Source: an uncultured Thermoleophilaceae bacterium (GTDB taxonomy: Bacteria; Actinomycetota; Thermoleophilia; Solirubrobacterales; Thermoleophilaceae). From it: a DNA stretch of 64,000 nucleotides. The stretch spans positions 408,606 through 472,605 of the forward strand of contig CAWJWD010000006.1 of assembly GCA_963846505.1 (NCBI GenBank), given 5' to 3'. The translations under genes were made by a program, and so were the position numbers. A model generated the notes under the pieces. That model worked only from the letters and a program-made list of their open reading frames with translations. It made no database searches and was not told where the DNA came from. Shown piece after piece: positions 19,692-40,087 of the stretch; position 1 is the stretch's first letter; every line of letters starts with the position of its first letter.

Positions 19692-20927
19692 CTAGTCTCG
19701 CCGGCACTGGGGGCTCTCGACCAGCGTCCGTAGCTCGCGATAGGCGACGCGACCGGCGTCGACCTGGCGCCGGGCCGCTCCGATCAACGCGTCCCGCGAC
19801 GTCGGCGCTTCATCCCAGAGGCGCTGCACGGCCGCAGCCATGCGAGCAGGCGCGTCGGAGCCTGCCAGCGAGATGACGTCGCACCCGGTGCCGAACTGCT
19901 GGCGCAGGCCCTCGAACTTCGCCTCGTAGTAGTCGGAGGCCGTCAGACAGACGACCGGGATTCCCAGCGCGAGCGCGAACACGGCGGCGTGGTAGGTCCC
20001 CGTCACCAGCACGCGCGCGGCGGCGATGCGCTCGATCGCTGCGGCTGCATCTGCCGGGATCGCGGCCGGCGTCTCGCAGAGCCGCGAGAGAACGTCCGCG
20101 TCGGGCTCGGCGGGATGCGAGGAGAGCGCGAGCGGCGCGAGCGGCGCATCGAGGCGATCGGCCGTCTCGCGCAGCGCCAGGACCACCCGCTCGGCATCTG
20201 ACGCGCCGACGCCAGCGTAGTCGGCGACGCGCAGGCTGACTGCGAGCTCCGTGCCCGACGGCGCGGAAGGGCGCTCCGCCAGCGCCAGCTCGATCGCGTC
20301 GTCGCCGGTCACGTGAACGCGTGCGGCCGGCACGCCGAGCCGCTCCAGCAGCGGGGGGCCAACCAGGTCTTCGCGTAGGGCGATCGCACCGACGCGTGAC
20401 AGGACGTCGGCGGCACGGCGCCTGAGCTCCGGCCCGAGGGGACCGATGCCCTGGCCGAGCATGGCGCTTGGGATGCCGGCGGCGTCGGCCATCCTCAGCT
20501 CCTCGAGCATCGCGACGGCCTCGTCGGCAAACGCGTCGGTCAGGGCGCCGCGGCCGCTGAGGACGAACAGGTCCGCACTCAGCAGCTCACGCACGAACGC
20601 AGCCGGATCGCCGCTCTCGCCCCGGCGGCGACGAGCCTCCATGCCAAGCGCGCGACGGGCTGCCGCGGTGGGCAAGCGGCGCGCCAGCCTGCGCTCCGGG
20701 GTGGGCGTCGCGGTCGCCCGCGGCTGGCGCAGCCAGGCGTAGCGGCCCTGGGCGTCGACTGGCTCGGCGCCGGGACACGAGCGCTCGAGCAGATCCGGCG
20801 CAGCGGTGATCACCGCGATGCGCGCGTGCGGCCACTGCTCGCGTAGGCGCGCGACGCAGACCTGCAGCATCGCGACGTCGCCGACGTTCAGCAGGTGGTG
20901 GCTGCCGGGGTCGATCAGGATCCTCAC
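19692..20927 (-). CDS. polysaccharide pyruvyl transferase family protein
   Basis: RILIDPGSHHLLNVGDVAMLQV... is the N-terminal motif of PS_pyruv_trans proteins. GTG 20927 forms a GTGA overlap with the upstream stop, so it is preferred over the track start 20978. Confidence 0.85.
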   Translation of the reverse strand: MRILIDPGSHHLLNVGDVAMLQVCVARLREQWPHARIAVITAAPDLLERSCPGAEPVDAQGRYAWLRQPRATATPTPERRLARRLPTAAARRALGMEARRRRGESGDPAAFVRELLSADLFVLSGRGALTDAFADEAVAMLEELRMADAAGIPSAMLGQGIGPLGPELRRRAADVLSRVGAIALREDLVGPPLLERLGVPAARVHVTGDDAIELALAERPSAPSGTELAVSLRVADYAGVGASDAERVVLALRETADRLDAPLAPLALSSHPAEPDADVLSRLCETPAAIPADAAAAIERIAAARVLVTGTYHAAVFALALGIPVVCLTASDYYEAKFEGLRQQFGTGCDVISLAGSDAPARMAAAVQRLWDEAPTSRDALIGAARRQVDAGRVAYRELRTLVESPQCRRD

Positions 20928-21697
20928 AGCCCTGCTCCGTCCATGTAGCCGCGCACGCGGGCGTAGAGGGCGGGCCATGCGCCGGGTGTGCGCGGGTGGC
21001 GCACGGCGAGGTCGAGCAGCGCGGCGATCGCCCCGGCCTCGAGACCGCGCGTGTCGTAGCTCTTGCCGCGTGTCGGCTCGGGCCAGCGGTAGCGCGCGAG
21101 GCGACGATCGACGTAGGCGAAGCGCCAGCCCGCCGCCGCCAGGCGCAGGTAGAGGTTCCAGTCCTCCACGCTCTTGAGCCAGCCGCTGTAGCCGCCGATC
21201 GCGCGCATCGCGGTCGTCCGCATCGACGCCGTCGGGCAGGGGATCGGATTGGCGTCGAGCAGCTCGGGAAAGCGATCGCGGGGATGGATCGAGGGATCGC
21301 CGATGTAGTCCTCATGCCCCGTCGGATGGCCGAGGATCGTGGTGTTCGCGTAGACGAGACCCACCGCAGGGTCCTCGAACGCCGGCAGCACCGCCTCCAG
21401 GTAATCGGGCTCCCAGAGGTCGTCCGCGTCGAGCTGGCAGACGACCGGGGCGCGGGCAAGCCGCAGCGCCGAGTTGCGCGCCTGTCCGGTACCGCCGTTG
21501 CGGGTGCGGCGCACGATCCGCAGCCGCGGGTCTCGCACGTCGGCGAGCGCGTCGGAGACCGGCAATGGCGAGGCGTCGTCCGCGACGATCACCTCGACCT
21601 GCTCGACCGTCTGGGCCAGAGCCGAGTCGACCGACTCGCGCAGCGTGGCCTCGGCCGCGTAGGCGGGCACCATCACGCTCGCGCGGGGCGCGGTCAC
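20924..21697 (-). CDS. glycosyltransferase family 2
   Basis: SVMVPAYAAEATLRESVDSALAQT ... VIVADDAS ... QLDADD (DxD). 257 aa. GTGA overlap with the upstream gene. Confidence 0.9.
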   Translation of the reverse strand: MTAPRASVMVPAYAAEATLRESVDSALAQTVEQVEVIVADDASPLPVSDALADVRDPRLRIVRRTRNGGTGQARNSALRLARAPVVCQLDADDLWEPDYLEAVLPAFEDPAVGLVYANTTILGHPTGHEDYIGDPSIHPRDRFPELLDANPIPCPTASMRTTAMRAIGGYSGWLKSVEDWNLYLRLAAAGWRFAYVDRRLARYRWPEPTRGKSYDTRGLEAGAIAALLDLAVRHPRTPGAWPALYARVRGYMDGAGL

Positions 21698-22488
21698 GAC
21701 GCGGCCGCCGACTCGCGCCGAAGGTCATGGGCTATGCGCTCGAGTTGCGTCGAGGAGCGAAACCACTCGGCCTTGCGGCGACCCGCCAGCTGGATCCGCC
21801 GGAAGGCATGCGGGCGCCGCAGCGCGTTCTCGGCGGCGATGAAGAGGTCGTCGGGATCGCGCGCCTCGAGATAGTCGACCCCCGGCTCGAGCCCGAGCGC
21901 CGGCGAGAGCGTCTCGCTGACCAGCAGGCAGCCCGACGCCAGCGCCAGCGCCAGCTCATGCGTGACCCAGCCGCGCCCCTGCTCGGGCAGGTTGACGGCG
22001 ACGTCGCCGCCGGTGACGTCGACCAAGTCCATGACGGCACCGGACCGACTCGTAGGGGAGAGCGCGTCCGCCCCCGGCCACGTGGCCGCCCCGGCGTGCC
22101 TGCACAGGAGCTCCTCCCGGCGCGCGCCTCCCGGCCCGATCCAGCGCACGCCGCGGGTCGGCGGCGGCAACGGCGGCGGCATGAAGCTCGCGTCGGCGAC
22201 GGGCAACGGCAGCGTCCGCCAAGCGCCGGCGGTCTGCGGATCGGTCGCGATCAGCCGATCGCAGGCGCGCAGCGCGACGGACGGCTGCTCGCCCGCGTCG
22301 AGCCAGACGACCGTTGGCGGAGCGTCCGCCTCGGGCGCGCTGGCGGGGACGCCGAGCGCGATCGCCAGCTCCGTGTCGTCAGACGGCGGCTGGCCGCTCG
22401 GGACGAGCTCGACCGTGTCCAGCTCGGGCGCGCAGGCGAGCAGGCGCTCGACGTCGCCGGTCAGTGCGATGCGGACAGTGGCAGCCAT
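21694..22488 (-). CDS. CgeB/Glyco_trans_1_2-like protein (GT1-type C-terminal domain only)
   Basis: The C-terminal half (HELALALASGCLLVSETLSPALGLEPGVDYLEARDPDDLFIAAENAL) resembles the GT-B C-terminal lobe. The N-terminal half has no motif I recognise. Confidence 0.65.
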   Translation of the reverse strand: MAATVRIALTGDVERLLACAPELDTVELVPSGQPPSDDTELAIALGVPASAPEADAPPTVVWLDAGEQPSVALRACDRLIATDPQTAGAWRTLPLPVADASFMPPPLPPPTRGVRWIGPGGARREELLCRHAGAATWPGADALSPTSRSGAVMDLVDVTGGDVAVNLPEQGRGWVTHELALALASGCLLVSETLSPALGLEPGVDYLEARDPDDLFIAAENALRRPHAFRRIQLAGRRKAEWFRSSTQLERIAHDLRRESAAAS

Positions 22489-22538: not shown

Positions 22539-23777
22539 ATGGCCCTCCGAATCTGCTTCGTCCTCAGCCGGCTCGGCCCCTCGGGCGGCGAGCGCGTGGC
22601 GCTCGACCATGCCCGGCTGCTGGCGCGCGAGCACGGTCACCAGGTGACGATCGCGATCGTCGAGCAGTCGCCGCCGGCCGGCCGCGACGGCCAGCTCGAG
22701 CTGGCCGCGCTCGCCGACCTGCGCGAGCGCGAGTTCGACCTGGCGCTGGCCACCTGGTGGCGCACCGCGCTGTCGCTGTTCGAGCTGCGCGCACGACGCC
22801 GGGCGTACTTCACCCAGAACCTCGAGGAGCGCCTCTACCGCCCCGGCGACGTCGAGCGCGTCGGCGCGCTCGCGACCCAGTCGCTGCCGTTGGCGATCGT
22901 CACCGAGGCCGCCTGGCTGGCCGAGCTGCTGCAGGAGCTCCAGCCCCGGCGCGTCCCACGGCACGTCGCCAACGGGATCGACAAGCGGTTGTTCGCAATC
23001 CCCGAGCACCCGCCGCAACACGACGGCCCGTTGCGGATCCTGATCGAGGGCAGCTCGGCGCTCTGGTTCAAGGGCGTCGGCGACGCGCTCGACGCCGTCG
23101 CCGCCATGCGTCGACCGCGGCACGTCACGTTCGTCGGTCCCGACCCGCCGGACGACCCCAGGGGTCTGATCGACCGCACGCTCGGCCCCCAGCCCTACGA
23201 CGCCATGCCGACCGTCTACGACGACGCCGACGTGCTGCTCAAGCTCTCGCGCGTGGAGGGCGTGTTCACGCCGCCGCTCGAGGGCTTCCACCGCGGCGCC
23301 ACCTGCGTCGTGACCCCGGTCACCGGGCACGACGAGTACGTCGCCCACGGCGTCAACGGGCTCGTCGCCGACTGGGACGATCCGCACGGCACCGCACGCC
23401 GGCTCGACCTGCTCGCCGCCGACCGCACGCTGCTCCACGAGCTGCGCACCGGCGCGCTGACCACCGCCCGCGGCTGGCCCTCGAGCGAACGGGCCACGGC
23501 GGCGATGGACGCGGCGCTGCGGGCGATCGCAGCCGAGCCGCCGCCGCCCACCGACGCGGCCGCGGCCCAGCTGCTGGCCGACGTCGAGGTGGCGATGGAG
23601 GAGCAGCGCCTGGCGCAGCTGCGCCTGCGGCGCCGCGCAGAGTCGGCCGAGTGGCTGCTGGACGGCGAGCGCGACCACGCCGCGACGCTGCAGGATCGGA
23701 TCTGGGAGCTCGAGGGCAAGCTCTCGCGCGGACCGCTGGGGCAGCTGCGGCGACTGAAGGCGCTGCTGCGCCGGTGA
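22539..23777 (+). CDS. glycosyltransferase family 4 (GT-B) with a C-terminal coiled-coil tail
   Basis: MALRICFVLSRLGPSGGERVALDHARLLAREHGH... at the N-terminus. The last roughly 70 aa are heptad-like and charged (LLADVEVAMEEQRLAQLRLRRRAESAEWLLDGERDHAATLQDRIWELEGKLS). Confidence 0.88.
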   Translation: MALRICFVLSRLGPSGGERVALDHARLLAREHGHQVTIAIVEQSPPAGRDGQLELAALADLREREFDLALATWWRTALSLFELRARRRAYFTQNLEERLYRPGDVERVGALATQSLPLAIVTEAAWLAELLQELQPRRVPRHVANGIDKRLFAIPEHPPQHDGPLRILIEGSSALWFKGVGDALDAVAAMRRPRHVTFVGPDPPDDPRGLIDRTLGPQPYDAMPTVYDDADVLLKLSRVEGVFTPPLEGFHRGATCVVTPVTGHDEYVAHGVNGLVADWDDPHGTARRLDLLAADRTLLHELRTGALTTARGWPSSERATAAMDAALRAIAAEPPPPTDAAAAQLLADVEVAMEEQRLAQLRLRRRAESAEWLLDGERDHAATLQDRIWELEGKLSRGPLGQLRRLKALLRR

Positions 23778-23814
23778 GGAGTCGCCCCCCGATCCTCTAG
23801 CGTTCCCGCGGCCG

Positions 23815-25080
23815 ATGAGCAGCGACACCGGATCCCGCCTGCAGGAGCGGCGCGCCGCGCTTGCGCAGGCGCCCGCGGCAGTCGTCGTCGACCACGTCTC
23901 GAAGACGTTCCGGATCCCGCATCAGCAGTACCACACGCTCAAGGAGCGGATGCTGCACCCGGGCCGCTCGCGCACCTTCGAGGAGTTCCATGCGCTGCGG
24001 GACGTCGAGGTGAGCGTCAAGGAGGGCGAGTTCTTCGGCATCGTCGGGCGCAACGGCTCGGGCAAGAGCACGCTGCTCAAGTGCCTGGCCGGCATCTACC
24101 GTCCCGACGCAGGCCGCGTCGAGGTGCACGGACGGCTGTCGCCGTTCATCGAGCTCGGCGTCGGCTTCAACCCCGATCTCGCCGCGCGCGACAACGTCGT
24201 CATCAACGCGGTGATGATGGGCCTCTCGCGGGCCGAGGCGCGCAGGCGCTTCGACGAGATCATCGCCTTCGCCGAGCTGGAGGAGTTCGTCGACCTCAAG
24301 CTCAAGAACTACTCCTCCGGCATGGCCGTGCGACTCGGCTTCGCGGTCTCGACCCAGGTCGACGCCGAGGTGCTGCTCGTCGACGAGGTGCTGGCCGTCG
24401 GCGACGCCTCGTTCCAGCAGAAGTGCTTCGACGTCTTTCGCCGCCTCAAGGCCGAGGGCAAGACGATCCTGCTCGTGACCCATGACATGGGGCTGGTCGA
24501 GCAGTTCGCCGACCGGGCGATGCTGATCGAGCGCGGCGAGGTGCTGAAGGTCGGCGATCCGCACGAGATCGGGCGCATGTACAACCAGGTCAACTTCGGC
24601 GAGCTGATCCACGACAAGCCCGCCGAGGAGCGCGAGCCGACCCAGCGCGCCGCCCAGATCACCGCCTGCTGGTTCGAGGTAGACGGCGAGCGGGTGACCG
24701 ACCTGCCCCAGGGCGAGCTGCTCGAGATCGTCGCCGAGGTCCGCTTCGAGGCGACGGTCGAGGATCCGGTGTTCGGACTCTCGCTGCGCAACGACGCCGG
24801 CCACACGGTCTTCGCCACCTCGACCCAGTGGGACACGCCCGAGACCGGTCGCTTCGAGGCCGGCGACACGGCGATCGCGCGCGTCAAGGTGCCGGCCTGG
24901 TTCGCGCCCAGCCGCTATCGGGCGACGCCGTCGCTGGCGCGACCCGGCGGGGGCGCGGCGACGCTCGACGTGCGCGAGGACCTGGCCTCCTTCATCCTCC
25001 ACTCCACGCGCGCGTCCGGTGGCGTGATCGACCCGCCGCACACGGTGGAGCTGGAGCGCGTGCGGGAGGCCGCGCGATGA
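23815..25080 (+). CDS. wzt: polysaccharide ABC exporter ATP-binding protein Wzt with a C-terminal beta-sandwich (Wzt_C-like) domain
   Basis: GIVGRNGSGKSTLLK (Walker A), YSSGMAVRLGFA (signature) and LLVDEVLAVGD (Walker B). About 170 extra C-terminal residues follow (ITACWFEVDGERVTDLPQGELLEIVAEVRFEATVEDPVFGLSLRNDAGHTVF...). Confidence 0.93.
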   Translation: MSSDTGSRLQERRAALAQAPAAVVVDHVSKTFRIPHQQYHTLKERMLHPGRSRTFEEFHALRDVEVSVKEGEFFGIVGRNGSGKSTLLKCLAGIYRPDAGRVEVHGRLSPFIELGVGFNPDLAARDNVVINAVMMGLSRAEARRRFDEIIAFAELEEFVDLKLKNYSSGMAVRLGFAVSTQVDAEVLLVDEVLAVGDASFQQKCFDVFRRLKAEGKTILLVTHDMGLVEQFADRAMLIERGEVLKVGDPHEIGRMYNQVNFGELIHDKPAEEREPTQRAAQITACWFEVDGERVTDLPQGELLEIVAEVRFEATVEDPVFGLSLRNDAGHTVFATSTQWDTPETGRFEAGDTAIARVKVPAWFAPSRYRATPSLARPGGGAATLDVREDLASFILHSTRASGGVIDPPHTVELERVREAAR

Positions 25081-25907
25081 ACGCGGCCGCGGGCGACGTG
25101 CGCGCCGGCATGGTCGTCGGAGACTTCTCGCGCTTCGCCGCCCTGACCTGGACGCTGGCGGTCACCGACTGGAAGCTGCGCTTCTACGGCTCGGTGCTCG
25201 GCTACCTCTGGCAGCTGGTGCGGCCGTTCGCGTTCTTCGGCGTGATCTACGTCGTCTTCACCCAGATCGTCGGGCTCGGCGACGACGTGCCCAACTACGG
25301 CGTCTACATCCTGTTCGCGCTGGTGCTGTTCAACTTCTTCAGCGAGGTCACCAACGGCTGCGTGACGTCGCTGATGACGCGCGAGAACCTGCTGCGCAAG
25401 ATCTCCTTCCCGCGCCTGGCGATCCCGATGGCGGTCACGCTCGCCGGCCTGTTCAACCTCGTCGGGACGCTCGTGGCGGTGTTCATCTTCGCCGTCGGCA
25501 ACGGCATCTACCCGACCTGGAGCTGGCTCGAGCTGATCGTGCTGGTGCTGCTGCTGGCGATGCTCGCGAGCGGCGTCGGGATGCTGCTGAGCGTGCTCTA
25601 CGTGCGCTATCGCGACGTGCAGCCGATCTGGGAGGTGCTGACGCAGATCCTCTTCTACGCCTCCCCGATCCTCTACGTCAGCTCGCTCGTCGACGAGTGC
25701 TGTCAGCACCCGTACGTGGCGAATCCGATCGCGGCGATCCTGACCCAGATGCGCAACGCGGTGATCGACCCGACCGCACCGACGGTCTCGGCCGCGATCG
25801 GGGGCAGCGTGCGGCTGCTGATCCCGCTTGCGATCATCGTCGGCCTGTTCGGACTCGGGCTCTGGGTCTTCAACCGCGAGGCGCCGAAGATCGCCGAGCA
25901 CCTGTAG
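25077..25907 (+). CDS. wzm: ABC-2 type polysaccharide exporter permease Wzm
   Basis: ATG 25077 forms an ATGA overlap with the wzt stop. 276 aa with 6 TM helices and an ABC-2 pattern (FYGSVLGYLWQLVRPFAFFGVIYVVF...). Confidence 0.9.
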   Translation: MNAAAGDVRAGMVVGDFSRFAALTWTLAVTDWKLRFYGSVLGYLWQLVRPFAFFGVIYVVFTQIVGLGDDVPNYGVYILFALVLFNFFSEVTNGCVTSLMTRENLLRKISFPRLAIPMAVTLAGLFNLVGTLVAVFIFAVGNGIYPTWSWLELIVLVLLLAMLASGVGMLLSVLYVRYRDVQPIWEVLTQILFYASPILYVSSLVDECCQHPYVANPIAAILTQMRNAVIDPTAPTVSAAIGGSVRLLIPLAIIVGLFGLGLWVFNREAPKIAEHL

Positions 25908-25918
25908 CGTCGGCCCTC

Positions 25919-27211
25919 ATGGCGACCGATCCGAGCACCGAATCCCCCGAGCTCGAGCAGCTGCGCGAGCGCCTCGACGAGCTCGAGCGCGAGGCGGCCG
26001 AGCGCACGGCGCGCGCCAACCTGGCGCTGGCGGAGGCCCAGGACCGCTCCTACTGGCTCGATCGCTGGCACCTCGACCTCAACGCGCTCATGCGCCGGCC
26101 CGGTGCCAGCGAGCTGCGCGCGGCGCTGCGGGCTGCGCGCTCGGTCTACCGCTCGCTCTACGACGCACGCAGCCGCCTGCGCGACCACAAGAACTCGGTG
26201 CCGCTGCGCGTCTCGGCCGCCAAGCAGGCGCTCGAGGAGGAGCGCTCGCTGGCCGAGGAGCCCGGCGTCGAGGCCGAGCGCTACGGGCGCACGCTGTCGC
26301 CCGACCGGCTGCAGGCCGCACCGATCAGCGAGCTGCTCTACGCCCGGCTGGACGAGCGCGACGTCGCGGCCGTGGAGGAGCGGCTGAGCGCGTCCGAAGC
26401 GGCACTCTGGGAGACCGCCGGCGCACGCGATCGCACGCGCTACGCGCTCGCCTTCGCCGTCCACCACGGGCTCGAGGGTGCGCTCGAGCGCACCGGGCTG
26501 CGCGCCGCGATGCCGCCGGCCGGCGTGCACGCGATGGCGCACGGACCCCAGGCCGCGGGCGGCTCGTACTACTACGCGGACCTCGTCGCCGACGCGCTGC
26601 GCGAGAGCGGCGCCGAGCTCGCCCCCGGCCAGCGCGTGCTCGACTTCGGCTGCTCGTCCGGTCGCGTGGTGCGCGTGCTGGCGGCCGCGCTGCCGGAGCT
26701 CGAGTGGCACGGCTGCGACCCGATCCCCGACGCGATCGAGTGGGCGCGCGCCAACCTGCCGGGAATCGCCTTCGAGCGCAGTCCCGAGTACCCGCCGCTG
26801 CCGTACGAGGAGGCGAGCTTCGACGCGGTCTACGCGATCTCGATCTGGAGCCACTTCGCCGAGGGCGCGGCGCTCGACTGGCTGGCCGAGATGCGCCGCA
26901 TCGTCAAGCCAGGCGGTCGGCTGGCGCTCAGCACGCACGGCGAGCAGACGGTCACCCACACCCATCGTGCTGGGCTGCGCTCGGCCGAGCAGCTCGAATC
27001 GGTGCGGGCAGCGCTGTTCGAGCGAGGCTTCTGGTATGCGGCGGAGTTCGGCGAGCAGGGCGACCACGGGGTCGCCAACCCCGACTGGGGCACGGCGTTC
27101 CTGTCGGCGGAGTGGCTGCTCGCGAAGCTGACCCCGGACTGGCGCGTGGTCCTGTTCCACCCCGGGCGGGTGGAGGACAACCAGGACCTGTACGTGCTCG
27201 AGCGCCGGTGA
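25919..27211 (+). CDS. class I SAM-dependent methyltransferase with a long N-terminal coiled-coil region
   Basis: ATG 25919. The N-terminus ELEQLRERLDELEREAAERTARANLALAEAQ... is coiled-coil-like. The C-terminal half carries VLDFGCSSGRV (motif I) and RIVKPGGRLALS. Confidence 0.88.
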   Translation: MATDPSTESPELEQLRERLDELEREAAERTARANLALAEAQDRSYWLDRWHLDLNALMRRPGASELRAALRAARSVYRSLYDARSRLRDHKNSVPLRVSAAKQALEEERSLAEEPGVEAERYGRTLSPDRLQAAPISELLYARLDERDVAAVEERLSASEAALWETAGARDRTRYALAFAVHHGLEGALERTGLRAAMPPAGVHAMAHGPQAAGGSYYYADLVADALRESGAELAPGQRVLDFGCSSGRVVRVLAAALPELEWHGCDPIPDAIEWARANLPGIAFERSPEYPPLPYEEASFDAVYAISIWSHFAEGAALDWLAEMRRIVKPGGRLALSTHGEQTVTHTHRAGLRSAEQLESVRAALFERGFWYAAEFGEQGDHGVANPDWGTAFLSAEWLLAKLTPDWRVVLFHPGRVEDNQDLYVLERR

Positions 27212-27224
27212 GGGCGCGGCGTCC

Positions 27225-29369
27225 GTGAGGTCCGCCTCGGTCGTGATCCCGGTGCTGAACGCCGGGCCGCTGCTCGACGAGGTGCTCGCCGGCGTGCGCG
27301 AGCAGGGCGAGCTCGAGCTGCTGGTGATCGACTCCGGCTCGGGCGACGGCTCGGTCGAGCGCGCACGGGCCGCGGGTGCGCGCGTGATCGAGATCCCCCA
27401 GCGGGAGTTCGGCCACGGCCGCACGCGCAACCTCGGCGCCGAGCGGACCTCCGGCGAGCTGATCTGCTTCCTGACCCAGGACGCGGTGCCGCTGCCCGGC
27501 TGGCTCGACGCCTACCGCGAGGCGTTCGAGCTCGACGGGCGCGTGGGGGCTGCCTTCGGTCCGCATCTCCCCCGGCCGGAGACGAGTCCGATGATCGCGC
27601 GCGAGCTGACCGAGTTCTTCGCCGGCTTCGCCCCCAACGGGACGCCGAGCCTGCAGCGTGCCGGCGAGCTGACGTTCCTCTCGAACGTGAACGCCTGCTA
27701 CGCCCGCGCCTGTTGGGAGCAGCTGCGCTTTCCCGACGTCGAGTACGCCGAGGACCAGGCGTTCGGGGTCCTGATGCTGGAGTCCGGCTGGGTCAAGGCC
27801 TACCAGCCCCGTGCCGCCGTGCGCCACGCGCACGACTACGGCCCGGTCGAGTTCATGCGCCGCTACTTCGACGAGTACCGCGGCCTGCGCGAGGTCAGCG
27901 GGCACGTCGAGCCGCTGGAGCTGAGCGCGGCGGCGCGCGAGGTGCGCGGGGACGCGCGCTGGCTGCGCGAGCAGGGAGTGGCGGGGCCGCGGCGCGCGCG
28001 CTGGCTGGCACGCTCGGCCGTCCACCACGGCGGGCGGCGGGTGGCGTCTGCGCTGGGCTCCCGAGCGGAGCGGCTGCCGGGCGCGGTGCAGCAGGCGCTG
28101 TCGCTGGAGGGCCGGTCCGGCCAGGGGCGCGACGACGAGCTGGCGGCGGAAGCGGCCGCTCCCGACCAGGACGCCCCGCCCAGCGGCGCGGCGACCGAGA
28201 CGGCCGTGCTGCCGAGCGGGCGCCACGTCCCGGCTCGTCCGGGCCCCGGACCCCACGAGGAGATCCTGCGCGTGCACCGCGAGGGGCCGGCACCGCTCGA
28301 CGACCCGGTCCCGGGCACCGCCGAGCGCGGCACGCTCCATCTCGCGATCGTGATTCCGCCGTTCGCGCGCGGCAGCGGCGGCCACAACACGATTTTCACC
28401 CTGGTCGCCCGCCTGGAGCGGATGGGCCACACCTGTTCGATCTGGATGTACGACCCTCACCACCGCCACCACGAGTCCGCCTCGGTGCTGCGCCGGCGGG
28501 TGATCGACGAGTTCACGCCGCTGCGCGCACCGGTGCACAAGGGCTTCGGCGGCTGGGCCGGGGCCGACGTCGCGATCGCGACGGGCTGGGACACCGCCTA
28601 CCAGGTCGCGTTGCTGCCCGCCTGCCGCGCACGGGCCTACCTGATCAACGACCACGAGCCGGAGTTCTTCGCCACCTCCGCCGAGTCGCTCTGGGCCGAG
28701 AACACCTATCGCCTCGGCCTCTACGGCATCTCCGCCAGCCGCTGGCTGCGCGACCTGCTGCAGCAGCGCTACGGCCAGCGGGGCAGCTGGTTCCGACTCG
28801 GCGCGGAACCCGGCATCTACCGCCCGCGGCCGGTCGAGCGCCGGCGCGACACGGTCATCTTCTACGCCCGCGGCTTCACCCCCCGGCGCGCCGTGCCGCT
28901 GGGCGCGCTCGCGCTCGAGGAGCTGCACCGGCGCCGGCCCGGCGCCCGCTTCGTGCTCTTCGGACAGGCGGAGGAGCTCGACCTGCCGTTCGACTACGAG
29001 CTGCTCGGCGTCGTGAGTCCCGAGACGCTCGCCTGGCACTACTCGCAGGCCACCGCGGGCCTCTGCCTGTCGCTGACCAACTACTCGCTGATCCCGCAGG
29101 AGATGCTCGCCTGTGGCCTGCCCTGCGTCGATCTCTCGGGCAGCAGCACCGAGAGCGAGATCGGTCCCCTCGGCGGCGTGGAGTTCGCTCCCGCCGACCC
29201 GGTCGCGCTCGCCGACGCGCTCGAGCGGCTGCTCGCCGACGAGGGACGCTGGCAGCAGCAGTCGCAGGCCGGGCTGGCGTTCGTCGAGACGGCGTCGTGG
29301 GACGTGGCGGCCAGCCAGGTCGAGGCGGCGCTGCGCGAAGCCCTGCGCGAGCGCGAAGCCGGCAGCTAG
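27225..29369 (+). CDS. two-domain glycosyltransferase: N-terminal GT2 plus C-terminal WsaF-like GT-B (rhamnosyltransferase-like)
   Basis: N-terminal VVIPVLNAGPLLDEVLAGV ... LVIDSGSGDGS ... FLTQDAVP. A roughly 100-aa low-complexity linker follows. C-terminal LHLAIVIPPFARGSGGHNTIFTLVARLERMGH... resembles WsaF-family enzymes. Confidence 0.85.
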   Translation: MRSASVVIPVLNAGPLLDEVLAGVREQGELELLVIDSGSGDGSVERARAAGARVIEIPQREFGHGRTRNLGAERTSGELICFLTQDAVPLPGWLDAYREAFELDGRVGAAFGPHLPRPETSPMIARELTEFFAGFAPNGTPSLQRAGELTFLSNVNACYARACWEQLRFPDVEYAEDQAFGVLMLESGWVKAYQPRAAVRHAHDYGPVEFMRRYFDEYRGLREVSGHVEPLELSAAAREVRGDARWLREQGVAGPRRARWLARSAVHHGGRRVASALGSRAERLPGAVQQALSLEGRSGQGRDDELAAEAAAPDQDAPPSGAATETAVLPSGRHVPARPGPGPHEEILRVHREGPAPLDDPVPGTAERGTLHLAIVIPPFARGSGGHNTIFTLVARLERMGHTCSIWMYDPHHRHHESASVLRRRVIDEFTPLRAPVHKGFGGWAGADVAIATGWDTAYQVALLPACRARAYLINDHEPEFFATSAESLWAENTYRLGLYGISASRWLRDLLQQRYGQRGSWFRLGAEPGIYRPRPVERRRDTVIFYARGFTPRRAVPLGALALEELHRRRPGARFVLFGQAEELDLPFDYELLGVVSPETLAWHYSQATAGLCLSLTNYSLIPQEMLACGLPCVDLSGSSTESEIGPLGGVEFAPADPVALADALERLLADEGRWQQQSQAGLAFVETASWDVAASQVEAALREALREREAGS

Positions 29370-29376
29370 CCGCCGG

Positions 29377-31785
29377 CTATCCGCGCGGGTCGACGGCCTC
29401 GACCCAGACCAGTCGCGGGCCGCAGAGCTCGCGCCAGCGCCGCGACGGCGCCTGCACGAGCGCCGGAGCGCGTTCGGCCGGCACCAGCGCGAGCGGGCCC
29501 AGCCGGCGCGGACCGTCGCCGTTGCCGGGCCTGAGGCTGCCGCCGCCGCGCAGCAACTCGACCCTGTGCCTGCCCGCCGCGAGACGCACGCGGCCGAGGT
29601 CGTTCCAGCCGCTTGGCTGAGCCAGCTCCTCGCCGATCTCGGCAACTGCGCGGCCGTCGATCACGACCCTCACGGGACGACCGATCGAGCCGGCGAGCCA
29701 GAGCTCGTAGTCGCCTGCGCGCGTGAGCGGAACCGAGCCCTGGACGGCACCGGGACCGACGGTCTGCACGAGCGGCGGATCGCCCCCGAGCGCCGCCCAG
29801 CCCGGTGGCAGCGGGCGCGAGGCGGTGTCGAGCCGCCCACCAGGCGGGGCGTAGGCGGCGACCAGCTGCTCCCCGGGACCAGCCTGGCGTGCGAGCCGGC
29901 GCACGGCGCGGCAGCTGGGTGCGGCCTCGGCCGTCTGCGCGGTCACCGCCGGCGCGTCGGTGCGCCGCCAGATCTCGTACCAGTGCCCGCTCCACTCGCG
30001 ACGCCAGTTGGCCGGCGGGCGGTCGCCGTCGGGGTTGCGACGTGTGACGGCCAGGTCGAAGCGCTCGACGTCGGGCAACGCCAGCGACGCCATCTTCGTG
30101 TTGGTCGCGAACGCTGGCCGACCGCCGGTCGCCAACTGCGGCGAGAGGCCCTCGACGGTGAAGCCCTCGGCAGCGCCCACCGGCTGCGAGTCGCGCAGGA
30201 AGTGCTTGCCGAACTCCTCGAACTCCGTGTACAGCAGCGGGCCGCGACCCGCGGTGCGCTTGCCGACGTCGGCAAGCTCCTCGAGCCGGTCCTGCGGCGC
30301 CAGGCTGACGTCGTGGTAGGCCATGGCGTTCGACACCAGCACGCCGGCCGCAAGCACCAGCGCCACCAGTCCGGCCTCCACGCGCGCGCCCATCGACTCC
30401 AGGGCCACCGGCCCGAGTGCCGCCGCCAACAGCACGGCCGGCGATGCGATCGCCAGCGCCTTGCCGTCGGCCCAGGGCGAGCCTGTGCGTGTGACGTACC
30501 AGAGCGCGAGCAGCGAGCTGACGACGAACAGCAGCGGGCCGAGCGCACGCCGTCGCACGAGCCAGGCGACGCCGAAGATCGCCGCCACCAGCGCCAGCCC
30601 GACGAGTGCATAGGTCAACTCGAGCGAGTCGAGGCCGGTGCCGGATCGCGGCGTGAGGCGGAAGTCCCCGTTGAGCCAGACGCCCGCCACCTCCTGCACC
30701 GGCAACGGGGTGAGCAGGTTGCCGAACTCCTCCTGCGCGGTGACGACTGCCCTAGTCACGTCGAGGTAGCTGCCGAGATCGACCAGCGTCGGAATCGACA
30801 GCAGCGCCAAGGCGGCGGCGAAGCCGAGCGCCAGGCCGGCGATCCGAACCGGCTCGCGTGGCCTGCGCGAGACGACGACCGCGAGCGCGACCAGCAGGAT
30901 CGGCCCCAGCCACGGCGCGACGGCCACGCCGATCGCGGCGATCCCGGCGGCGCTCGCGATCGCCAGCGGCAGCAGTTGGCGCGGGCCGTAGCGGAACGTC
31001 CCCCCCGCGGCGCCCGGCAGGGCCGCGAGCGCGGCGACCAGCGCGGCCAGCAGCGGCACCAGCCAGAGCGTGGCCAGCTCCTTGACGCTGCCCTGCAGCG
31101 CGTAGGCGTAGACGAGCGCCGGCTGGGCGGCGATCGTCGCGACGGCCGCGCGCCGCCAGGCCGATCGCACCAGGTCGCGCACGAGCGCGACGAGCGTGAG
31201 CGTCAGCATCGCGGCGAGCAGGGCCAGGAACGGCTGGAACGCCCAGGCGACGTCGACGAACGCCAGCGGACGCACCGCGCCGAGCGCGGCGTGCGCGCCG
31301 AGCGGGTAGCCCGTCGAGAGGTAGGTCTCGACTGCCTCCTGGTAGGACGACGGCGGCAGCCCCTCGACGTTCGTCCCGTGCGTCGCGATGCGGTCGACCA
31401 GGGCGAAGTGGACGCTGTGGTCGCCGAGGATCGTGTAGCCGGCGAAGGTGGCGCTGCCGCTGAGCACCACGGGAGCCGCGAACGCTGCGAAGACGACCAG
31501 TGCCGCCCCGACCGCCCACGGGTCGACGTCGGCCGGTCGCAGCCGCTCGCGGCCGAGGACGAACCCCGCGACCGCGAGCACGACCACGAGCGGGGTCGCC
31601 AACTCGGCCGTGAAGTCCCACGTCATCAGGGCGCGTGCCGCGACGACGATCGTCGCGAGCCCGACCGGCACCAGCAGCGCTCCCGCCAGGCGCGTCCCGC
31701 TCAGGCGCTCGACCAACAGGCCGCAACCGAGCGACAGTGCCGCGAGCAGCACCGGAAACAGCAGCCAGGCCTTCAGGAAGAGCAC
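29377..31785 (-). CDS. large polytopic membrane protein, GT-C-like candidate glycosyltransferase with a roughly 330-aa C-terminal extracytoplasmic domain
   Basis: 802 aa, GTG start. About 13 TM helices fill the first 470 aa, with an early loop GYTILGDHSVHFALVDR. The soluble C-terminus is beta-rich in composition. No named family could be assigned by eye. Confidence 0.8.
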   Translation of the reverse strand: MLFLKAWLLFPVLLAALSLGCGLLVERLSGTRLAGALLVPVGLATIVVAARALMTWDFTAELATPLVVVLAVAGFVLGRERLRPADVDPWAVGAALVVFAAFAAPVVLSGSATFAGYTILGDHSVHFALVDRIATHGTNVEGLPPSSYQEAVETYLSTGYPLGAHAALGAVRPLAFVDVAWAFQPFLALLAAMLTLTLVALVRDLVRSAWRRAAVATIAAQPALVYAYALQGSVKELATLWLVPLLAALVAALAALPGAAGGTFRYGPRQLLPLAIASAAGIAAIGVAVAPWLGPILLVALAVVVSRRPREPVRIAGLALGFAAALALLSIPTLVDLGSYLDVTRAVVTAQEEFGNLLTPLPVQEVAGVWLNGDFRLTPRSGTGLDSLELTYALVGLALVAAIFGVAWLVRRRALGPLLFVVSSLLALWYVTRTGSPWADGKALAIASPAVLLAAALGPVALESMGARVEAGLVALVLAAGVLVSNAMAYHDVSLAPQDRLEELADVGKRTAGRGPLLYTEFEEFGKHFLRDSQPVGAAEGFTVEGLSPQLATGGRPAFATNTKMASLALPDVERFDLAVTRRNPDGDRPPANWRREWSGHWYEIWRRTDAPAVTAQTAEAAPSCRAVRRLARQAGPGEQLVAAYAPPGGRLDTASRPLPPGWAALGGDPPLVQTVGPGAVQGSVPLTRAGDYELWLAGSIGRPVRVVIDGRAVAEIGEELAQPSGWNDLGRVRLAAGRHRVELLRGGGSLRPGNGDGPRRLGPLALVPAERAPALVQAPSRRWRELCGPRLVWVEAVDPRG

Positions 31786-31797
31786 GTGGCGTCGCCG

Positions 31798-32979
31798 CTA
31801 CCGACGGCGACGGAGGCCCAGGATGCTGAGCAGGAAGGATGAGAAGAAGATCTGGATGCCGACGATGATCAGCGTCGCGGCGAGGATGGCCAGTCGTTCC
31901 TCGGAGAGCTCGCCGAAGCCGCGATCGATCCAGATGCCGGCGATGGCCGCCGCGACGGCGAGGCCTGAGAACAGCACCGCCCCACCGAACACGAGCCCGT
32001 GCTCGAGCCGGAAGCGGGCGCGCATGCGGTCGAACCACGGGTCCTGCTCGCCCATGAAGTAGGTCGCATACGTGTGCGCGCAGAGCCCGAGCCCGAGCAC
32101 CTGCGTGCCGACGATCATCAGCAACGCGCCGGCGACCATCGAGTGCAGGTCCCACGCTCGCCCGAAGACGTCGAGCTGCAGCAGCACGGTGAGCGAGACG
32201 AGCACGCCCAGGAACGCCATCACGGCGCCGGGGACGATGAACAGCCACGTCGGGCTGTGGACCAGCAGGAAGCGCAGGTGGCGCCAGCCGTCGCGGAAGC
32301 TCGACAGCTTCGACTCGCCCTCCCGCGGGTGGTAGTGGATGCCGATCTCCTCGATCGCCAGCCGCTCCTTGCCGGCGCGGATCACCATCTCGGAGGCGAA
32401 CTCCATGCCGGTCGTGCGCAGGTCCAGCCGTGGCAGCGCCTCGCGCCGGACCGCGCGCATGCCGCAGTGGGCGTCGCGCACGCCGGTGCGGAAGAAGAGG
32501 TTGAGCAGGCCCGTCAGGACCGGGTTGCCGATGTAGCGGTGCAGCCACGGCATCGCACCGGGCTGGATGCCCTGCATGCGGTTGCCCATCACCAGCTCCG
32601 CCCCGTCGTCGAGCCGCTCGACGAAGCGCGGGATGTCCGCGAAGTCGTACGTCAGGTCGGCGTCGGCCATGACGATGTACTCGCCCTGGGCGGCGGCGAA
32701 GCCGGCCAGGTAGGCGCTGCCGTAGCCGCGACGGGGTTCGTGCACGACGAGGGCGCCGGCGGCCTTGGCCAGCTCGGGGCTGCCGTCCTCCGAGCCGTTG
32801 TCGGCGACGATCACCTCGCCCTCCCAGTCCTGCTCCTCGAACGCGGCCAGCGCCTTCTGCACGCAGCGCTGGATCGACGCCTGCTCGTTCAGGCAGGGGA
32901 TCACGACCGAGACCTTGATCGGCGCGGAGCCTTGGCGCTCGGTGCGCGCGAAGCGAGATTTGTGCTCGACGGTGCTCAC
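31798..32979 (-). CDS. GT2 polyprenyl-phosphate glycosyltransferase (DPM1/GtrB/ArnC-like) with a C-terminal 4-TM domain
   Basis: GTG 32979 lies behind GGGAGG. Contains VSVVIPCLNEQASI ... VADNGSEDGS ... MADADLTYD ... HCGMRAVRR, then 4 TM helices. The track start 33114 would consume the divergent spacer. Confidence 0.88.
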   Translation of the reverse strand: MSTVEHKSRFARTERQGSAPIKVSVVIPCLNEQASIQRCVQKALAAFEEQDWEGEVIVADNGSEDGSPELAKAAGALVVHEPRRGYGSAYLAGFAAAQGEYIVMADADLTYDFADIPRFVERLDDGAELVMGNRMQGIQPGAMPWLHRYIGNPVLTGLLNLFFRTGVRDAHCGMRAVRREALPRLDLRTTGMEFASEMVIRAGKERLAIEEIGIHYHPREGESKLSSFRDGWRHLRFLLVHSPTWLFIVPGAVMAFLGVLVSLTVLLQLDVFGRAWDLHSMVAGALLMIVGTQVLGLGLCAHTYATYFMGEQDPWFDRMRARFRLEHGLVFGGAVLFSGLAVAAAIAGIWIDRGFGELSEERLAILAATLIIVGIQIFFSSFLLSILGLRRRR

Positions 32980-33095
32980 AAGCAGGAAGCCTCCCGGGAG
33001 GGCCGGATGCCACCGTATGGAACGCGCGACCCGTACCAAAGTCGCGCGCAAGGGCGCGATCCTATCGAACGGTCTGACAGCCTTTCGGCTCCCTG

Positions 33096-34259
33096 ATGCG
33101 CATCTGCCTCGCATATGACTGTCTCTTCCCCCACACGGTGGGGGGCGCCGAGCGCTGGTATCGCAACCTCGCGCTCGCGCTCGTGGACGCCGGTCACGAG
33201 GTCACCTACCTCACCCGACGCCAGTGGGCCGAGGGCGAGACGCCCGATCTGCCCGGCGTGCGCGTGGTCGCGGTGTCGCGCTTCGACGCTCTCTACGACG
33301 ACGAGGGTCGTCGCCTGATCGGCCCGCCGCTGCGCTTCGGCGCGGGGGTGCTGCGCCACCTGCTCGCCAACCGCGACCGCTACGACGCACTGCACCTGTG
33401 CTCGTTTCCCTACTTCTCCCTGCTCGCCGCGCGCCTCGGGCTGGCGGGCAGCGGGACGCCGATCGGGGTCGATTGGTTCGAGGTCTGGTCGCGCGGCTAC
33501 TGGCGCGACTACCTCGGGCCGGTGGGCGGCCGCGTCGGCGAGCTCGTGCAGCGGCTCTGCGCCCGGCTGACGCCGCAGGCCTACGTCTTCTCGCGGCTGC
33601 ACGCGCGCCGGCTGACGCAACTCGGCCTGCGCGGCGAGCCCGTCGCGCTCGCCGGCCTCTACGCCGGTCCGACCGAGCTCCAACGGCAGCAGCGGCGCGA
33701 GCGCCCCCCGCTGGCGGTCTTCGCCGGACGCCACATCCCGGAGAAGCAGCCGCAGCTCGTGCCGGGCGCGGTGGCTGCGGCACGCACACGCGTCCCGGGC
33801 CTGCGTGGCCTCGTCGTCGGCGACGGCCCGCTGCGCCCGACCGTGCTGGAGGCCGTCGCGGCCGCCGGGGCCGGCGACTTCGTCCAGGTACCCGGCTTCG
33901 TCGCCTCCGAGACCGTGCGCGAGGCCCTCGCCGACGCGACCTGCCACGTGCTGCCCTCCAGCCGCGAGGGCTACGGGCTGGTGGTCATCGAGGCCGCCGC
34001 CTACGGCACGCCGACCGTCGTGGTGGCCGGGGACGACAACGCCGCCGTCGAGCTGATCGAGCCGGGCGTCAACGGCTTCGTCGCGAGTGGAGCGGATCAG
34101 CTCGCGGACGCGATCGTGGCGGTCCACGAGGGGGGCGAGCAGCTGCGCGCGAGCACCGCCCGCTGGTTCGCCGAGCGCGCGCCGCAGCTGAGCGTGCAGG
34201 CGTCGATGCGGACCATCCTGAGCCAGTTGGAGGCCACGGCTGAGCGGCGGTCGGCGTAG
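33096..34259 (+). CDS. glycosyltransferase family 4
   Basis: MRICLAYDCLFPHTVGGAERWYRNLALALVDAGHEV ... SREGYGLVVIEAAAYGTPTVV (EX7E region). Confidence 0.9.
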   Translation: MRICLAYDCLFPHTVGGAERWYRNLALALVDAGHEVTYLTRRQWAEGETPDLPGVRVVAVSRFDALYDDEGRRLIGPPLRFGAGVLRHLLANRDRYDALHLCSFPYFSLLAARLGLAGSGTPIGVDWFEVWSRGYWRDYLGPVGGRVGELVQRLCARLTPQAYVFSRLHARRLTQLGLRGEPVALAGLYAGPTELQRQQRRERPPLAVFAGRHIPEKQPQLVPGAVAAARTRVPGLRGLVVGDGPLRPTVLEAVAAAGAGDFVQVPGFVASETVREALADATCHVLPSSREGYGLVVIEAAAYGTPTVVVAGDDNAAVELIEPGVNGFVASGADQLADAIVAVHEGGEQLRASTARWFAERAPQLSVQASMRTILSQLEATAERRSA

Positions 34260-37579: not shown

Positions 37580-38525
37580 CTGCGGTGTGCGAGACGTCCA
37601 GCGCGTCGCCGGGCGATCTCGCCCGCGCCTGGTCGCGCCACCAGGCAAAGGTGGTGGCCAGCCCCTCGGAGAGCCCGATGCGCGGGCGAAAGCCGACCTC
37701 GTCGCGCAGGCGGGTGGTGTCGGCCAACAACTCCTCGGGATCGCCCGGCCGTTGCGGCAGGGCGCCGACGTCGAGCAGCTCCTTGCGCCCGGAAACCTCG
37801 CCCAGCGTGTCGATCAGCGCGCGCAGCGGGGGCGCCTGGCCCGAGCCGATGTTGATCGGCCCGCAGGCGTCGGAGTCGACCAGCGCCGCGAACGCCCCGC
37901 CCACGTCGGAGACGTGGAGGAAGTCTCGTCGCTGCGTCCCGGCGCTGGTCCCGACCCGCTCTCCGCTCGCGAGCCCGTGCGCGACCGCGGCCACGAGTCG
38001 GCGCTTGTCCTCGTCCGGGCCGTAGAGGAAGAACACCCGGCCCCAGCCGACGCTGAGCTCGAGCTCGACCGCAGCCCCCTCGACGACCGCCCGGGTCGCG
38101 TCCTTGGTGATCCCGTAGAGCGTCGCCGGACATCGGGGAGACGTGCGCTCGACACGTGGCCCCGGCGACCCCCACTCGTACTCGGCACAACTACCGGCGA
38201 AGACGGCTCGCTTCCCGCCGAAGGCGGCGAAGGTGCGCACGAGCGCAAGCGTCGCCTCGACCCAGAGCACGTTCTCCAGCGAGGACCAGCAGCGTCCGGG
38301 CTCGGTGCACCAGGCCAGATGGAGCAGTCGCTCGGGGGCCACCTCGGCGACCACCCCGGCAGGGTCGACGAGCAGGTCGCGCTGGTGCCACGTCACGCCC
38401 GGCGGCGAGCCTGTGACCGGCGGGCGCCGGGAGGCGACGTGCACTTCGTGACCGGCTTCGGCGAGCGCGGCGACCGCGTGCCGCCCGATGAAGCCCGTGC
38501 CGCCCGTCACGAGCACTCGGCTCAT
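37566..38525 (-). CDS. NAD-dependent epimerase/dehydratase-family reductase (paralogue A)
   Basis: MSRVLVTGGTGFIGRHAV ... YGITKDATR (YxxxK). By eye about two thirds identical to the 45473-46381 product. Confidence 0.9.
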   Translation of the reverse strand: MSRVLVTGGTGFIGRHAVAALAEAGHEVHVASRRPPVTGSPPGVTWHQRDLLVDPAGVVAEVAPERLLHLAWCTEPGRCWSSLENVLWVEATLALVRTFAAFGGKRAVFAGSCAEYEWGSPGPRVERTSPRCPATLYGITKDATRAVVEGAAVELELSVGWGRVFFLYGPDEDKRRLVAAVAHGLASGERVGTSAGTQRRDFLHVSDVGGAFAALVDSDACGPINIGSGQAPPLRALIDTLGEVSGRKELLDVGALPQRPGDPEELLADTTRLRDEVGFRPRIGLSEGLATTFAWWRDQARARSPGDALDVSHTAGAGS

Positions 38526-38555
38526 GGCCCTTCCTCACCGGACGGATGCCATCCC

Positions 38556-38585
38556 ATAATCGTTGCATCTTAATAGATCAAACAA
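38556..38585 (-). promoter_or_regulatory. candidate internal promoter (TTGTTT-N18-GATTAT on the minus strand) in a 75-nt AT-rich spacer
   Basis: Hexamer match only. The spacer 38526-38600 is about 40% GC by hand count. GGTGAGGAAGGG precedes ATG 38525. Confidence 0.2.
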
Positions 38586-38600
38586 GCTATTTCGACTAAA

Positions 38601-40085: not shown

Positions 40086-40087
40086 GC

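Follow-up and report, generated by a model that had tools for sequence, protein, structure and literature searches.

The 64,000-nucleotide (nt) stretch of DNA considered here, referred to as the window, belongs to an uncultured Thermoleophilaceae bacterium (contig CAWJWD010000006.1, positions 408,606 to 472,605) and has a G+C content of 72%. It harbors a compact operon of five genes on the plus strand. The first encodes a GT4-family glycosyltransferase with a C-terminal helical stalk (22539–23777; 412 amino acids, aa), followed by the genes for the Wzt ATPase (23815–25080; 421 aa), the ABC-2 permease Wzm (25077–25907; 276 aa), a methyltransferase (MT; 25919–27211; 430 aa) and a bifunctional glycosyltransferase, GT2-WsaF, which combines a GT2 domain with a WsaF-like GT-B part and is the candidate polymerase (27225–29369; 714 aa). 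In outline, this is an ordinary locus for the synthesis and export of a sugar polymer of the cell surface. What appears to be new is a family of small, free-standing helical proteins, here called module A, which in the window forms the N-terminus of MT. The evidence is computational throughout; loci and proteins from the collections that were searched are cited by L and P numbers.

The operon and its exporter

The five genes are tightly packed, with intergenic gaps of 37, 11 and 13 nt and a wzm start that overlaps the wzt stop codon (ATGA), and they are marked by a third-position GC of 0.88–0.95, the GT4 gene reaching 0.95. An initial annotation of the window had already proposed a single plus-strand operon in the order GT4, wzt, wzm, MT and GT2-WsaF, and both the coordinates and the order are borne out by third-position GC and by Pfam matches. 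The gene calls of the protein collection agree, giving the same 430-aa MT (P0001) and the same 412-aa GT4 (P0121), and there is no usable alternative start codon for MT between the wzm stop and the ATG at 25919.

Wzt consists of a nucleotide-binding domain (ABC_tran at residues 61–192) and a C-terminal domain of the carbohydrate-binding type. The extra C-terminal residues had been assigned to the Wzt_C type in the initial annotation, and a hidden Markov model search agrees: PF14524 matches residues 273–406 (24631–25032, plus strand) with an E value of 2.3e-15 and 57.3 bits, compared to a cut-off of 30.4. The nucleotide-binding part matches the NCBIfam models for TagH and for galactan Wzt (E 1e-49 to 1e-52). 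The closest solved relative is the full-length Wzt of Aquifex aeolicus with its carbohydrate-binding domain (7k2t, 8dku; E ~1e-59), in an alignment that covers residues 51–375 of the window protein and reaches well into the carbohydrate-binding domain, and the isolated tail aligns weakly to crystal structures of the Aquifex carbohydrate-binding domain (6o14, 8dky). Wzm is recognized by ABC2_membrane (PF01061; E 1.5e-14; 54.5 bits, cut-off 26.9). Cytoplasmic assembly of the polymer, followed by Wzm-Wzt export with a carbohydrate-binding-type domain on the ATPase, is a secure assignment for the pathway. The locus also carries the genetic signature of cap-gated export that had been attributed to it, namely a true Wzt_C domain and an in-operon MT in an ABC transporter-dependent glycan locus. 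Comparable systems are those of Escherichia coli O8/O9a, Klebsiella pneumoniae O3/O5/O7, the Pseudomonas syringae TET operon and Geobacillus stearothermophilus WsaE (PMC11231755, PMC7820976, PMC2943079). A cap-recognizing exporter with an MT terminator is plausible because of this homology and synteny.

Module A

The N-terminus of MT had been described as a heptad-like extension of about 100 residues. The helical extension is real: in the AlphaFold2 (AF2) model of MT (mean pLDDT 80.8), residues 10–112 are predicted to be helical, with helices at residues 10–50, 54–58 (short), 63–92 and 94–112 (low confidence), followed by disorder to about residue 130. Heptads, on the other hand, account for only about 40 of these residues (6–45), and the rest is a motif, an amphipathic helix and a linker. 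The heptad score of 0.53 comes from a crude, home-made scorer that was run with shuffle controls and with GCN4 (0.59) and tropomyosin (0.60) as positive controls; the same scorer gave no heptad signal in Wzt or GT2-WsaF.

Module A proper comprises MT residues 1–92 (25919–26194, plus strand). The coiled coil leads into an invariant motif at residues 38–59 that is not coil-like (consensus AAQDRSYWLDRWxxDLNxxMRR; in the window, AEAQDRSYWLDRWHLDLNALMR), which in turn is followed by an amphipathic, arginine-rich helix at residues 63–92 (hydrophobic moment 0.68, p ~0.005). The arginines that stripe this helix are invariant at positions 67, 71, 74 and 78 in the alignment of homologs. Beyond it lies a flexible linker (residues 93–130; 26195–26308, plus strand), in which pLDDT is below 50–57, conservation is poor, and the alignment has insertions and deletions. 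The remainder of MT (26309–27211, plus strand) is made up of module B, a helical N-terminal extension (residues ~131–229), and the class I S-adenosylmethionine (SAM)-dependent methyltransferase domain (residues 230–430).

A phmmer search with MT residues 1–230 splits this region into module A (~5–90) and module B (~120–229). Module A by itself has 919 homologs, most of which are free-standing proteins of 74–131 aa (median 93), without Pfam domains and listed at their source as hypothetical or under unrelated automatic names. No Pfam or NCBIfam family matches module A. Among 118 members of the family, the motif is flanked by about 44 residues on its N-terminal side and about 46 on its C-terminal side, the C-terminal helix has a net charge of about +7, and the coil score averages 0.51, with all but two members (116/118) above the threshold. 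The length of the coil is fixed, with no insertions or deletions across the family, which argues against tuning of chain length by coil length. A six-frame search of the window found no second copy of the YWLDRW-type motif. In the literature, no description was found of a free-standing, non-catalytic coiled-coil protein that is conserved beside a polymerase gene.

A molecular ruler of the WbdD/WbbB type had been suggested for MT, but its architecture points elsewhere. The domain order is coil, motif, amphipathic helix, disordered linker and catalytic domain, which puts the coil at the far end from catalysis. It fails the WbdD layout, since it does not lie between a membrane anchor and the methyltransferase domain and is on the wrong side of the amphipathic helix. 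A WbdD-type ruler on MT is unsupported because the coil is short (~41 residues, or ~6 nm), of fixed length and in the wrong order, because the linker that joins it to the enzyme is disordered and variable, and because in most relatives it is detached altogether, as a separate protein.

The family may also extend further than the genomes compared below. An 808-nt contig with a G+C content of 48% (L088, 1–808) encodes the C-terminus of Wzm, a module A of 113 aa and the N-terminus of a GT2; module A is therefore probably not confined to the high-GC Thermoleophilia.

Gene order across Thermoleophilia

The operon was compared in 83 loci, three of them from metagenomes and 80 from species-representative genomes (184 species gave matches). 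Gene neighbors were located by tblastn with the window proteins, and counts refer either to 77 loci or to the 69 loci with full flanks. All of the named genomes are from Thermoleophilia, including Solirubrobacterales, Solirubrobacteraceae, Thermoleophilaceae, Conexibacter and two species of Solirubrobacter that are in culture, S. taibaiensis KCTC 29222 (L070) and S. phytolaccae KCTC 29190 (L083).

The gene order is nearly invariant: wzt (with Wzt_C), wzm, the module A gene (modA) and GT2-WsaF. A Wzt_C homolog is present in 76 of the 77 loci, wzm ends no more than 150 nt upstream of module A in 69 of 77, and the GT2-WsaF gene starts no more than 450 nt from module A in 70 of 77, while in six more it follows a modA-modB-MT fusion. 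Where wzm and wzt are elsewhere or missing from the 20-kb stretch (L008, L057, L060, L066 and L070), module A is still found directly before the polymerase gene. A mirror-tree analysis, which is a weak test, gave partial correlations with module A of 0.40 for the WsaF domain, 0.25 for the GT2 domain, −0.11 for Wzm and 0.06–0.09 for Wzt.

MT (module B with the catalytic domain) is found in 47 of the 69 full-flank loci, 41 of which have it as a separate, coil-less gene upstream of wzt. The fusion of module A to MT is a minority variant of Thermoleophilaceae, found in the window and in L007, L014, L017, L041, L047 and L049. Another kind of fusion occurs in L003 (8267–11341), where a free-standing 89-aa module A gene is followed by a 1024-aa protein consisting of GT2-WsaF with module B-MT at its C-terminus. 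In L001, module A, MT and GT2-WsaF are all separate, and a 324-aa MT gene (Methyltransf_23/11) directly precedes the module A gene. These patterns of fission and fusion tie module A, MT and the polymerase together functionally. They provide Rosetta-stone support (separate genes in L001, modA joined to MT, GT2-WsaF joined to MT in L003) for the terminator/polymerase complex that the initial annotation envisaged, but not for the coiled-coil pairing between MT and GT4 that it proposed: a GT4-stalk homolog and module A co-occur in only 3 of the 69 full-flank loci, and there is no homology between the two segments.

A second type of Wzt_C/Wzm locus exists in the same class. L084 has a WsaF-like gene only, with neither a fused GT2-WsaF nor module A, and also holds two GT4-stalk paralogs, a cupin, GtrA and several methyltransferases.

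The enzymes of the operon

The body of MT (residues 131–430) is predicted by AF2 to be a confident globular unit with pLDDT >90, tethered by the linker. Pfam places Methyltransf_25 at residues 240–333, with additional matches to Methyltransf_12, 11 and 23, and finds no kinase domain. Foldseek matches it to class I methyltransferases, among them two that O-methylate sugars, RebM and AtmM. A specific relationship between MT and WbdD was considered and rejected, the fold search having given only generic class I methyltransferases. Module B and the catalytic domain also occur without module A, in proteins of ~340–400 aa. Homologs of MT number more than 1200; the best 120 are full-length and 52–90% identical, and those that are named are proteins of Thermoleophilaceae metagenome-assembled genomes. 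P0023, P0027 and P0096 (662–674 aa) are MT homologs ~240 residues longer than the window enzyme and may be double methyltransferases; the module B match in P0096 starts at residue 366, and both P0027 and P0096 have extra methyltransferase Pfam families.

GT4 matches Glycos_transf_1 and, at residues 175–294, Glyco_trans_1_4. Its AF2 model, made from a 30-sequence alignment (mean pLDDT 89.9), has a GT-B fold at residues 1–332, a single 59-residue helix at 339–397 (pLDDT 87–92) and a 13-residue basic terminal helix at 399–411, the tail being encoded by 23553–23771 (plus strand). This agrees with the helical character of the coiled-coil-like tail of about 70 residues noted previously, but the heptad score (0.41 at residues 340–375) is only marginal relative to the 95th-percentile shuffle of 0.36, and 57 of 112 homologs pass. 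The tail has no Pfam match and measures 66–131 aa among homologs, counted from a conserved WPS motif. It always ends in a basic region, with a mean net charge of +6.1 in the last 20 aa (about 112–120 homologs). A specific activity was also sought from the fold, but Foldseek gave only generic retaining GT4 enzymes, such as BshA, MshA, PglA and WaaG, from which no activity can be inferred. GT4-stalk homologs with the tail are common in Thermoleophilia, and only in a few loci are they found near module A (L007, L014, L047, L066 and L086).

The layout of GT4 in the AF2 model, from catalytic domain through long helix to basic C-terminus, fits the geometry of a coiled-coil terminator. A catalytic domain, a long helix and a membrane-proximal end are the geometry of WbdD and of K. 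pneumoniae O4 ORF7 (PMC5082667, PMC11231755). Judging from this shared layout in the model, GT4 is therefore a better candidate than MT for a stalk-spaced enzyme.

On the minus strand before the GT4 gene, at 21694–22488, lies the gene for a divergent protein of 264 aa, which has no Pfam match and a faint C-terminal resemblance to Glyco_trans_1_2 (E 0.044). Its homologs adjoin GT4-stalk genes in L007, L047, L066, L084 (twice) and L086, which suggests that the two proteins form a conserved unit. The pairs are located at 3560–6252 and 8001–9212 in L084 and at 7246–9194 in L086.

In GT2-WsaF, the GT2 domain spans residues 5–213 (Pfam GT2 at residues 5–127, 68.6 bits), and the WsaF-like part at residues 447–690 gives WsaF_N, WsaF_C and GT1 (Glyco_trans_1_4) signals. 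No WsaF chain was among the PDB sequence matches of the protein at E ≤ 0.01. The polymer is probably rhamnose-based, because the WsaF-like domain is accompanied in the window by dTDP-rhamnose-type genes, which are located ~17–22 kb from the operon and would presumably serve this polymer. They include the C-terminal RmlC domain of a long open reading frame (ORF; within 46378–48129, minus strand), the true start of which is probably further in than listed, an NDP-sugar reductase-like gene (48137–49243), a nucleotidyl transferase (49204–50058, minus strand) and a 4,6-dehydratase (49841–51013, plus strand). The latter two ORFs overlap head to head, so that at least one start codon is probably mis-set.

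Neighboring genes

Two minus-strand genes follow the operon. One encodes an 802-aa polytopic membrane protein (29377–31785) that has no Pfam match and is a candidate extracytoplasmic glycosyltransferase of the GT-C type; tblastn finds homologs with 33–66% identity at the same position in many loci, and L002 and L003 have genes for DUF2142/PMT-family proteins nearby. The other encodes a GT2 (Pfam) with C-terminal transmembrane segments (31798–33114) that resembles polyprenyl-phosphate sugar synthases, with NCBIfam matches to AglJ, dolichyl-phosphate hexose transferase, ArnC and PpgS, and is conserved in nearly all related loci. From these resemblances, the chain is probably decorated after export by means of the synthase-like GT2 and the large membrane protein.

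More broadly, the window holds a glycan super-locus of ~45 kb, with genes at 38601–40184, 52356–54107, 19692–20978 and 41254–42237 on the minus strand and at 54040–54849 on the plus strand. Its content includes two Wzx-like flippases (Polysacc_synt), a polysaccharide pyruvyl transferase, a second methyltransferase and many further GT2 and GT4 genes, and it may make more than one polymer. A TagA/WecG-family transferase in the super-locus might point to a linkage unit for a polymer that is bound to peptidoglycan. AT skew peaks of 0.26–0.31 at 30001–32000, 38001–40000 and 52001–54000 coincide with the minus-strand genes for the 802-aa protein and the two flippases, and probably reflect T-rich hydrophobic codons on the coding strand rather than a structural feature of the DNA. 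A gene for a class II ribonucleotide reductase is found a few kilobases upstream of the locus in the window (7915–10770) and likewise in a distant relative, L086 (588–3437), and the chromosomal neighborhood therefore seems to be conserved. In Thermoleophilia, which are abundant soil bacteria, the glycan locus is probably the principal one for the cell envelope. A literature search on the envelope glycans of the class or on proteins like module A found nothing relevant.

Assembly, termination and the role of module A

How might the products of this operon work together? On balance, the evidence favors a Thermoleophilia-wide locus for an ABC-dependent surface or cell-wall glycan, with a methyl-type terminator, gating by Wzt_C and a module A scaffold that in this case is fused to MT. 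GT2-WsaF would build the chain on a polyprenyl carrier at the cytoplasmic face of the membrane, and the chain would stop growing once its non-reducing end is modified, most likely through O-methylation by MT. Wzt_C would then recognize the finished end and license export through Wzm-Wzt, after which the polyprenyl-phosphate sugar synthase and the large membrane protein would decorate the chain. By analogy, capping by MT and recognition of the cap by Wzt_C are the most likely roles for these domains, because characterized Wzt_C systems with an in-cluster MT work in this way (PMC11231755, PMC7820976, PMC2943079). Module A would be a membrane-peripheral, oligomeric scaffold that places the polymerase and, directly or indirectly, the terminator beside the exporter, using its 40-residue oligomerizing coil, a docking-type motif (YWLDRW-DLN-M) and the arginine-striped amphipathic helix. 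In the lineage of the window, its fusion to MT by a flexible tether would fix the terminator in the complex. The GT4 stalk would hold its own catalytic domain ~9 nm from the membrane.

Several observations weigh against this picture. As many as 22 of the 69 full-flank loci keep Wzt_C without a close MT homolog within 10 kb. In L086, the order is the gene for the 264-aa protein on the minus strand, then GT4-stalk, wzt, wzm, modA (81 aa) and GT2-WsaF, and there is no MT. The cap may therefore not be methyl, or it may differ between lineages. MT itself is a generic class I enzyme, with no WbdD chain among its PDB profile matches (E ≤ 0.01) or its 50 best Foldseek matches. The divergence of Wzt_C follows that of the nucleotide-binding domain (r = 0.95), with only a marginal link to the presence of MT; that effect is small and confounded by phylogeny, and it is therefore not used as evidence. 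The WsaF match is borderline, with 29.3 bits for WsaF_C (cut-off 27) and 25.4 bits for WsaF_N, which is below its cut-off of 27, and rhamnose must accordingly be regarded as inferred. The coil in module A was detected with the home-made scorer, though this was checked with two controls, and sequence pattern and gene order are what would point to its oligomerization, membrane binding and partners.

The loci that lack MT also bear on two other explanations. MT might not be the terminator, but might decorate internal sugars or some other substrate, with Wzt_C reading another feature of the chain, as its generic fold, the lack of a close homolog within 10 kb in about a third of the full-flank loci that keep Wzt_C and the weak statistical link between Wzt_C and MT presence would allow. 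This is unlikely, however, given that the MT gene is part of the transport/polymerase operon or closely precedes wzt in the other 47 loci, that MT forms a fusion with the polymerase in L003 and with module A in the window, and that it has counterparts in characterized Wzt_C systems that use methyl or methylphosphate caps (PMC11231755, PMC2943079). Alternatively, the GT4-stalk enzyme could be the true coiled-coil terminator, a capping glycosyltransferase kept at a distance from the membrane, like the Kdo-transferase module of WbbB or K. pneumoniae O4 ORF7, with MT methylating the cap or internal residues. L086, which has the GT4-stalk gene and no MT, would fit well, as would the WbdD-like domain layout, the range in tail length, which is to be expected of a tunable spacer, and the fact that the homologs are always found in Wzt_C/Wzm loci. 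The proposal is nevertheless doubtful: the coiled-coil propensity is marginal, the stalk is ~9 nm long as opposed to ~20 nm in WbdD, and most module A loci have no GT4-stalk gene within 10 kb. GT4 enzymes of such pathways are, moreover, often adaptor transferases, like WbdB and WbdC, which also counts against a terminator role.

For module A, its position just after wzm, with which it often overlaps, and the existence of mis-called Wzm-modA fusions (P0244, P0269, P0334) could indicate an accessory subunit of Wzm-Wzt, such as a gate or regulator, rather than a scaffold for polymerase and terminator. Such a role is quite unlikely, since module A stays with the polymerase in the five loci where wzm is apart, is missing from the other kind of Wzt_C/Wzm locus (L084), retains no co-variation with Wzm or Wzt in the partial correlations, and fuses to MT but never in frame to either transporter protein. 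Least probable by far is a heteromeric WbdD/WbbB-type ruler in which the N-terminal coil of MT and the C-terminal tail of GT4 pair to set chain length. Both helical segments are encoded in one operon and exceed shuffled sequences in heptad signal, and coiled coils are a hallmark of terminators in this pathway (PMC11231755). Yet the segments are unrelated and of different lengths (41 and 59 residues), they seldom occur in the same locus, and the module A coil has a fixed length, is not between a membrane anchor and the methyltransferase domain, and is connected to MT by a variable, disordered linker. Within the scaffold model, a bolder version, possible but tentative, would make module A a class-wide new family with an organizing and possibly chain-length-setting function, equivalent to the membrane-proximal coil and the recruitment region in WbdD but detachable and free of any catalytic domain, and caught in the window in a state of fusion to the terminator.

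Why would such a protein matter? Among ABC-dependent systems, the control of glycan chain length has been worked out for just a few Gram-negative O antigens, in which the ruler is part of the terminator enzyme. Module A, located beside the polymerase gene throughout the class and fused to the terminator in one lineage, is a concrete and testable candidate for a chain-length factor. If it is only a membrane tether, the finding shrinks to a routine member of the Wzt_C/terminator class.

Comparison with known systems

The initial annotation considered the arrangement of the operon to be different from those described. This holds for the free-standing module A, which appears new, but not for the variable distribution of modules as such, which is already documented: in K. 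pneumoniae O7 ORF6, O4 ORF7 and O12 WbbB, the terminator, coiled-coil and polymerase modules are found on one, two or three proteins (PMC11231755). K. pneumoniae O7 resembles the window in combining an MT terminator with rhamnosyltransferase GT2 modules, and the GT4-stalk enzyme resembles O4 ORF7, in which a C-terminal coil comes after the catalytic domain. In all of these systems, however, the terminator belongs to the coiled-coil protein, where it occupies the distal end of a long coil. The formats described do not include a non-catalytic coil protein of ~90 residues that stands by itself, and there is no sequence similarity.

E. coli O9a and K. pneumoniae O3, in which the polymerase WbdA is accompanied by WbdD, a kinase-methyltransferase terminator with a coiled-coil ruler, and by Wzm-Wzt with a carbohydrate-binding module, share with the window the dependence on an ABC transporter, the Wzt_C domain, an in-cluster SAM-dependent MT, a two-module polymerase, and a coiled coil and an amphipathic, membrane-type helix among the assembly proteins. 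The window MT differs in having no kinase domain and no specific relation to WbdD. Its coil is ~6 nm long, compared to ~20 nm in WbdD (PMC5082667), the domain order is reversed and includes a flexible linker, and most relatives encode the coil module as a protein of its own. The polymerases are also different, being GT2 plus WsaF-like in the window and GT4 plus GT4 in O9a/O3. Since the host of the window is a Gram-positive actinobacterium, the product is not lipopolysaccharide (LPS). The same four functions are gathered in one operon in the P. syringae common polysaccharide antigen (CPA) TET operon, which consists of wzm, wzt with Wzt_C, an O-methyltransferase and a bifunctional glycosyltransferase (PMC7820976), and glycosyltransferase-MT fusions occur in some strains. 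This, on the other hand, is a Gram-negative LPS antigen, its polymerase is of the GT4+GT4 kind, and module A is absent.

Among actinobacteria, the export of mycobacterial galactan (Wzm-Wzt Rv3783/Rv3781, with the polymerase GlfT2; PMC13018209) is likewise ABC-dependent and supplies a cell-wall glycan, and the exported chain is decorated outside the membrane by GT-C enzymes that use polyprenyl-phosphate sugars. The mycobacterial Wzt, however, is without a carbohydrate-binding domain, and neither a cap nor an MT terminator is known.

The S-layer glycan cluster of G. stearothermophilus NRS 2004/3a encodes wzm, wzt, wsaE (an MT with two rhamnosyltransferase domains) and wsaF (PMC2943079, PMC3898925). 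Like the window, it is a Gram-positive, ABC-dependent system with wzm and wzt directly upstream of the polymerizing transferases, and its product is a rhamnan with a 2-O-methyl cap. The WsaF-like domain and the nearby rml genes of the window add to the likeness, as does the WsaE-like glycosyltransferase-MT fusion in L003. The differences are that MT in the window is not fused to a glycosyltransferase, that the WsaF match is borderline, that no oligosaccharyltransferase or S-layer gene was identified in the window, and that G. stearothermophilus has no counterpart of module A. For the G. stearothermophilus rhamnan, it has been suggested that an unidentified chain-length factor may be required in vivo (PMC2943079). 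In Thermoleophilia, module A is a candidate for a factor of this kind.

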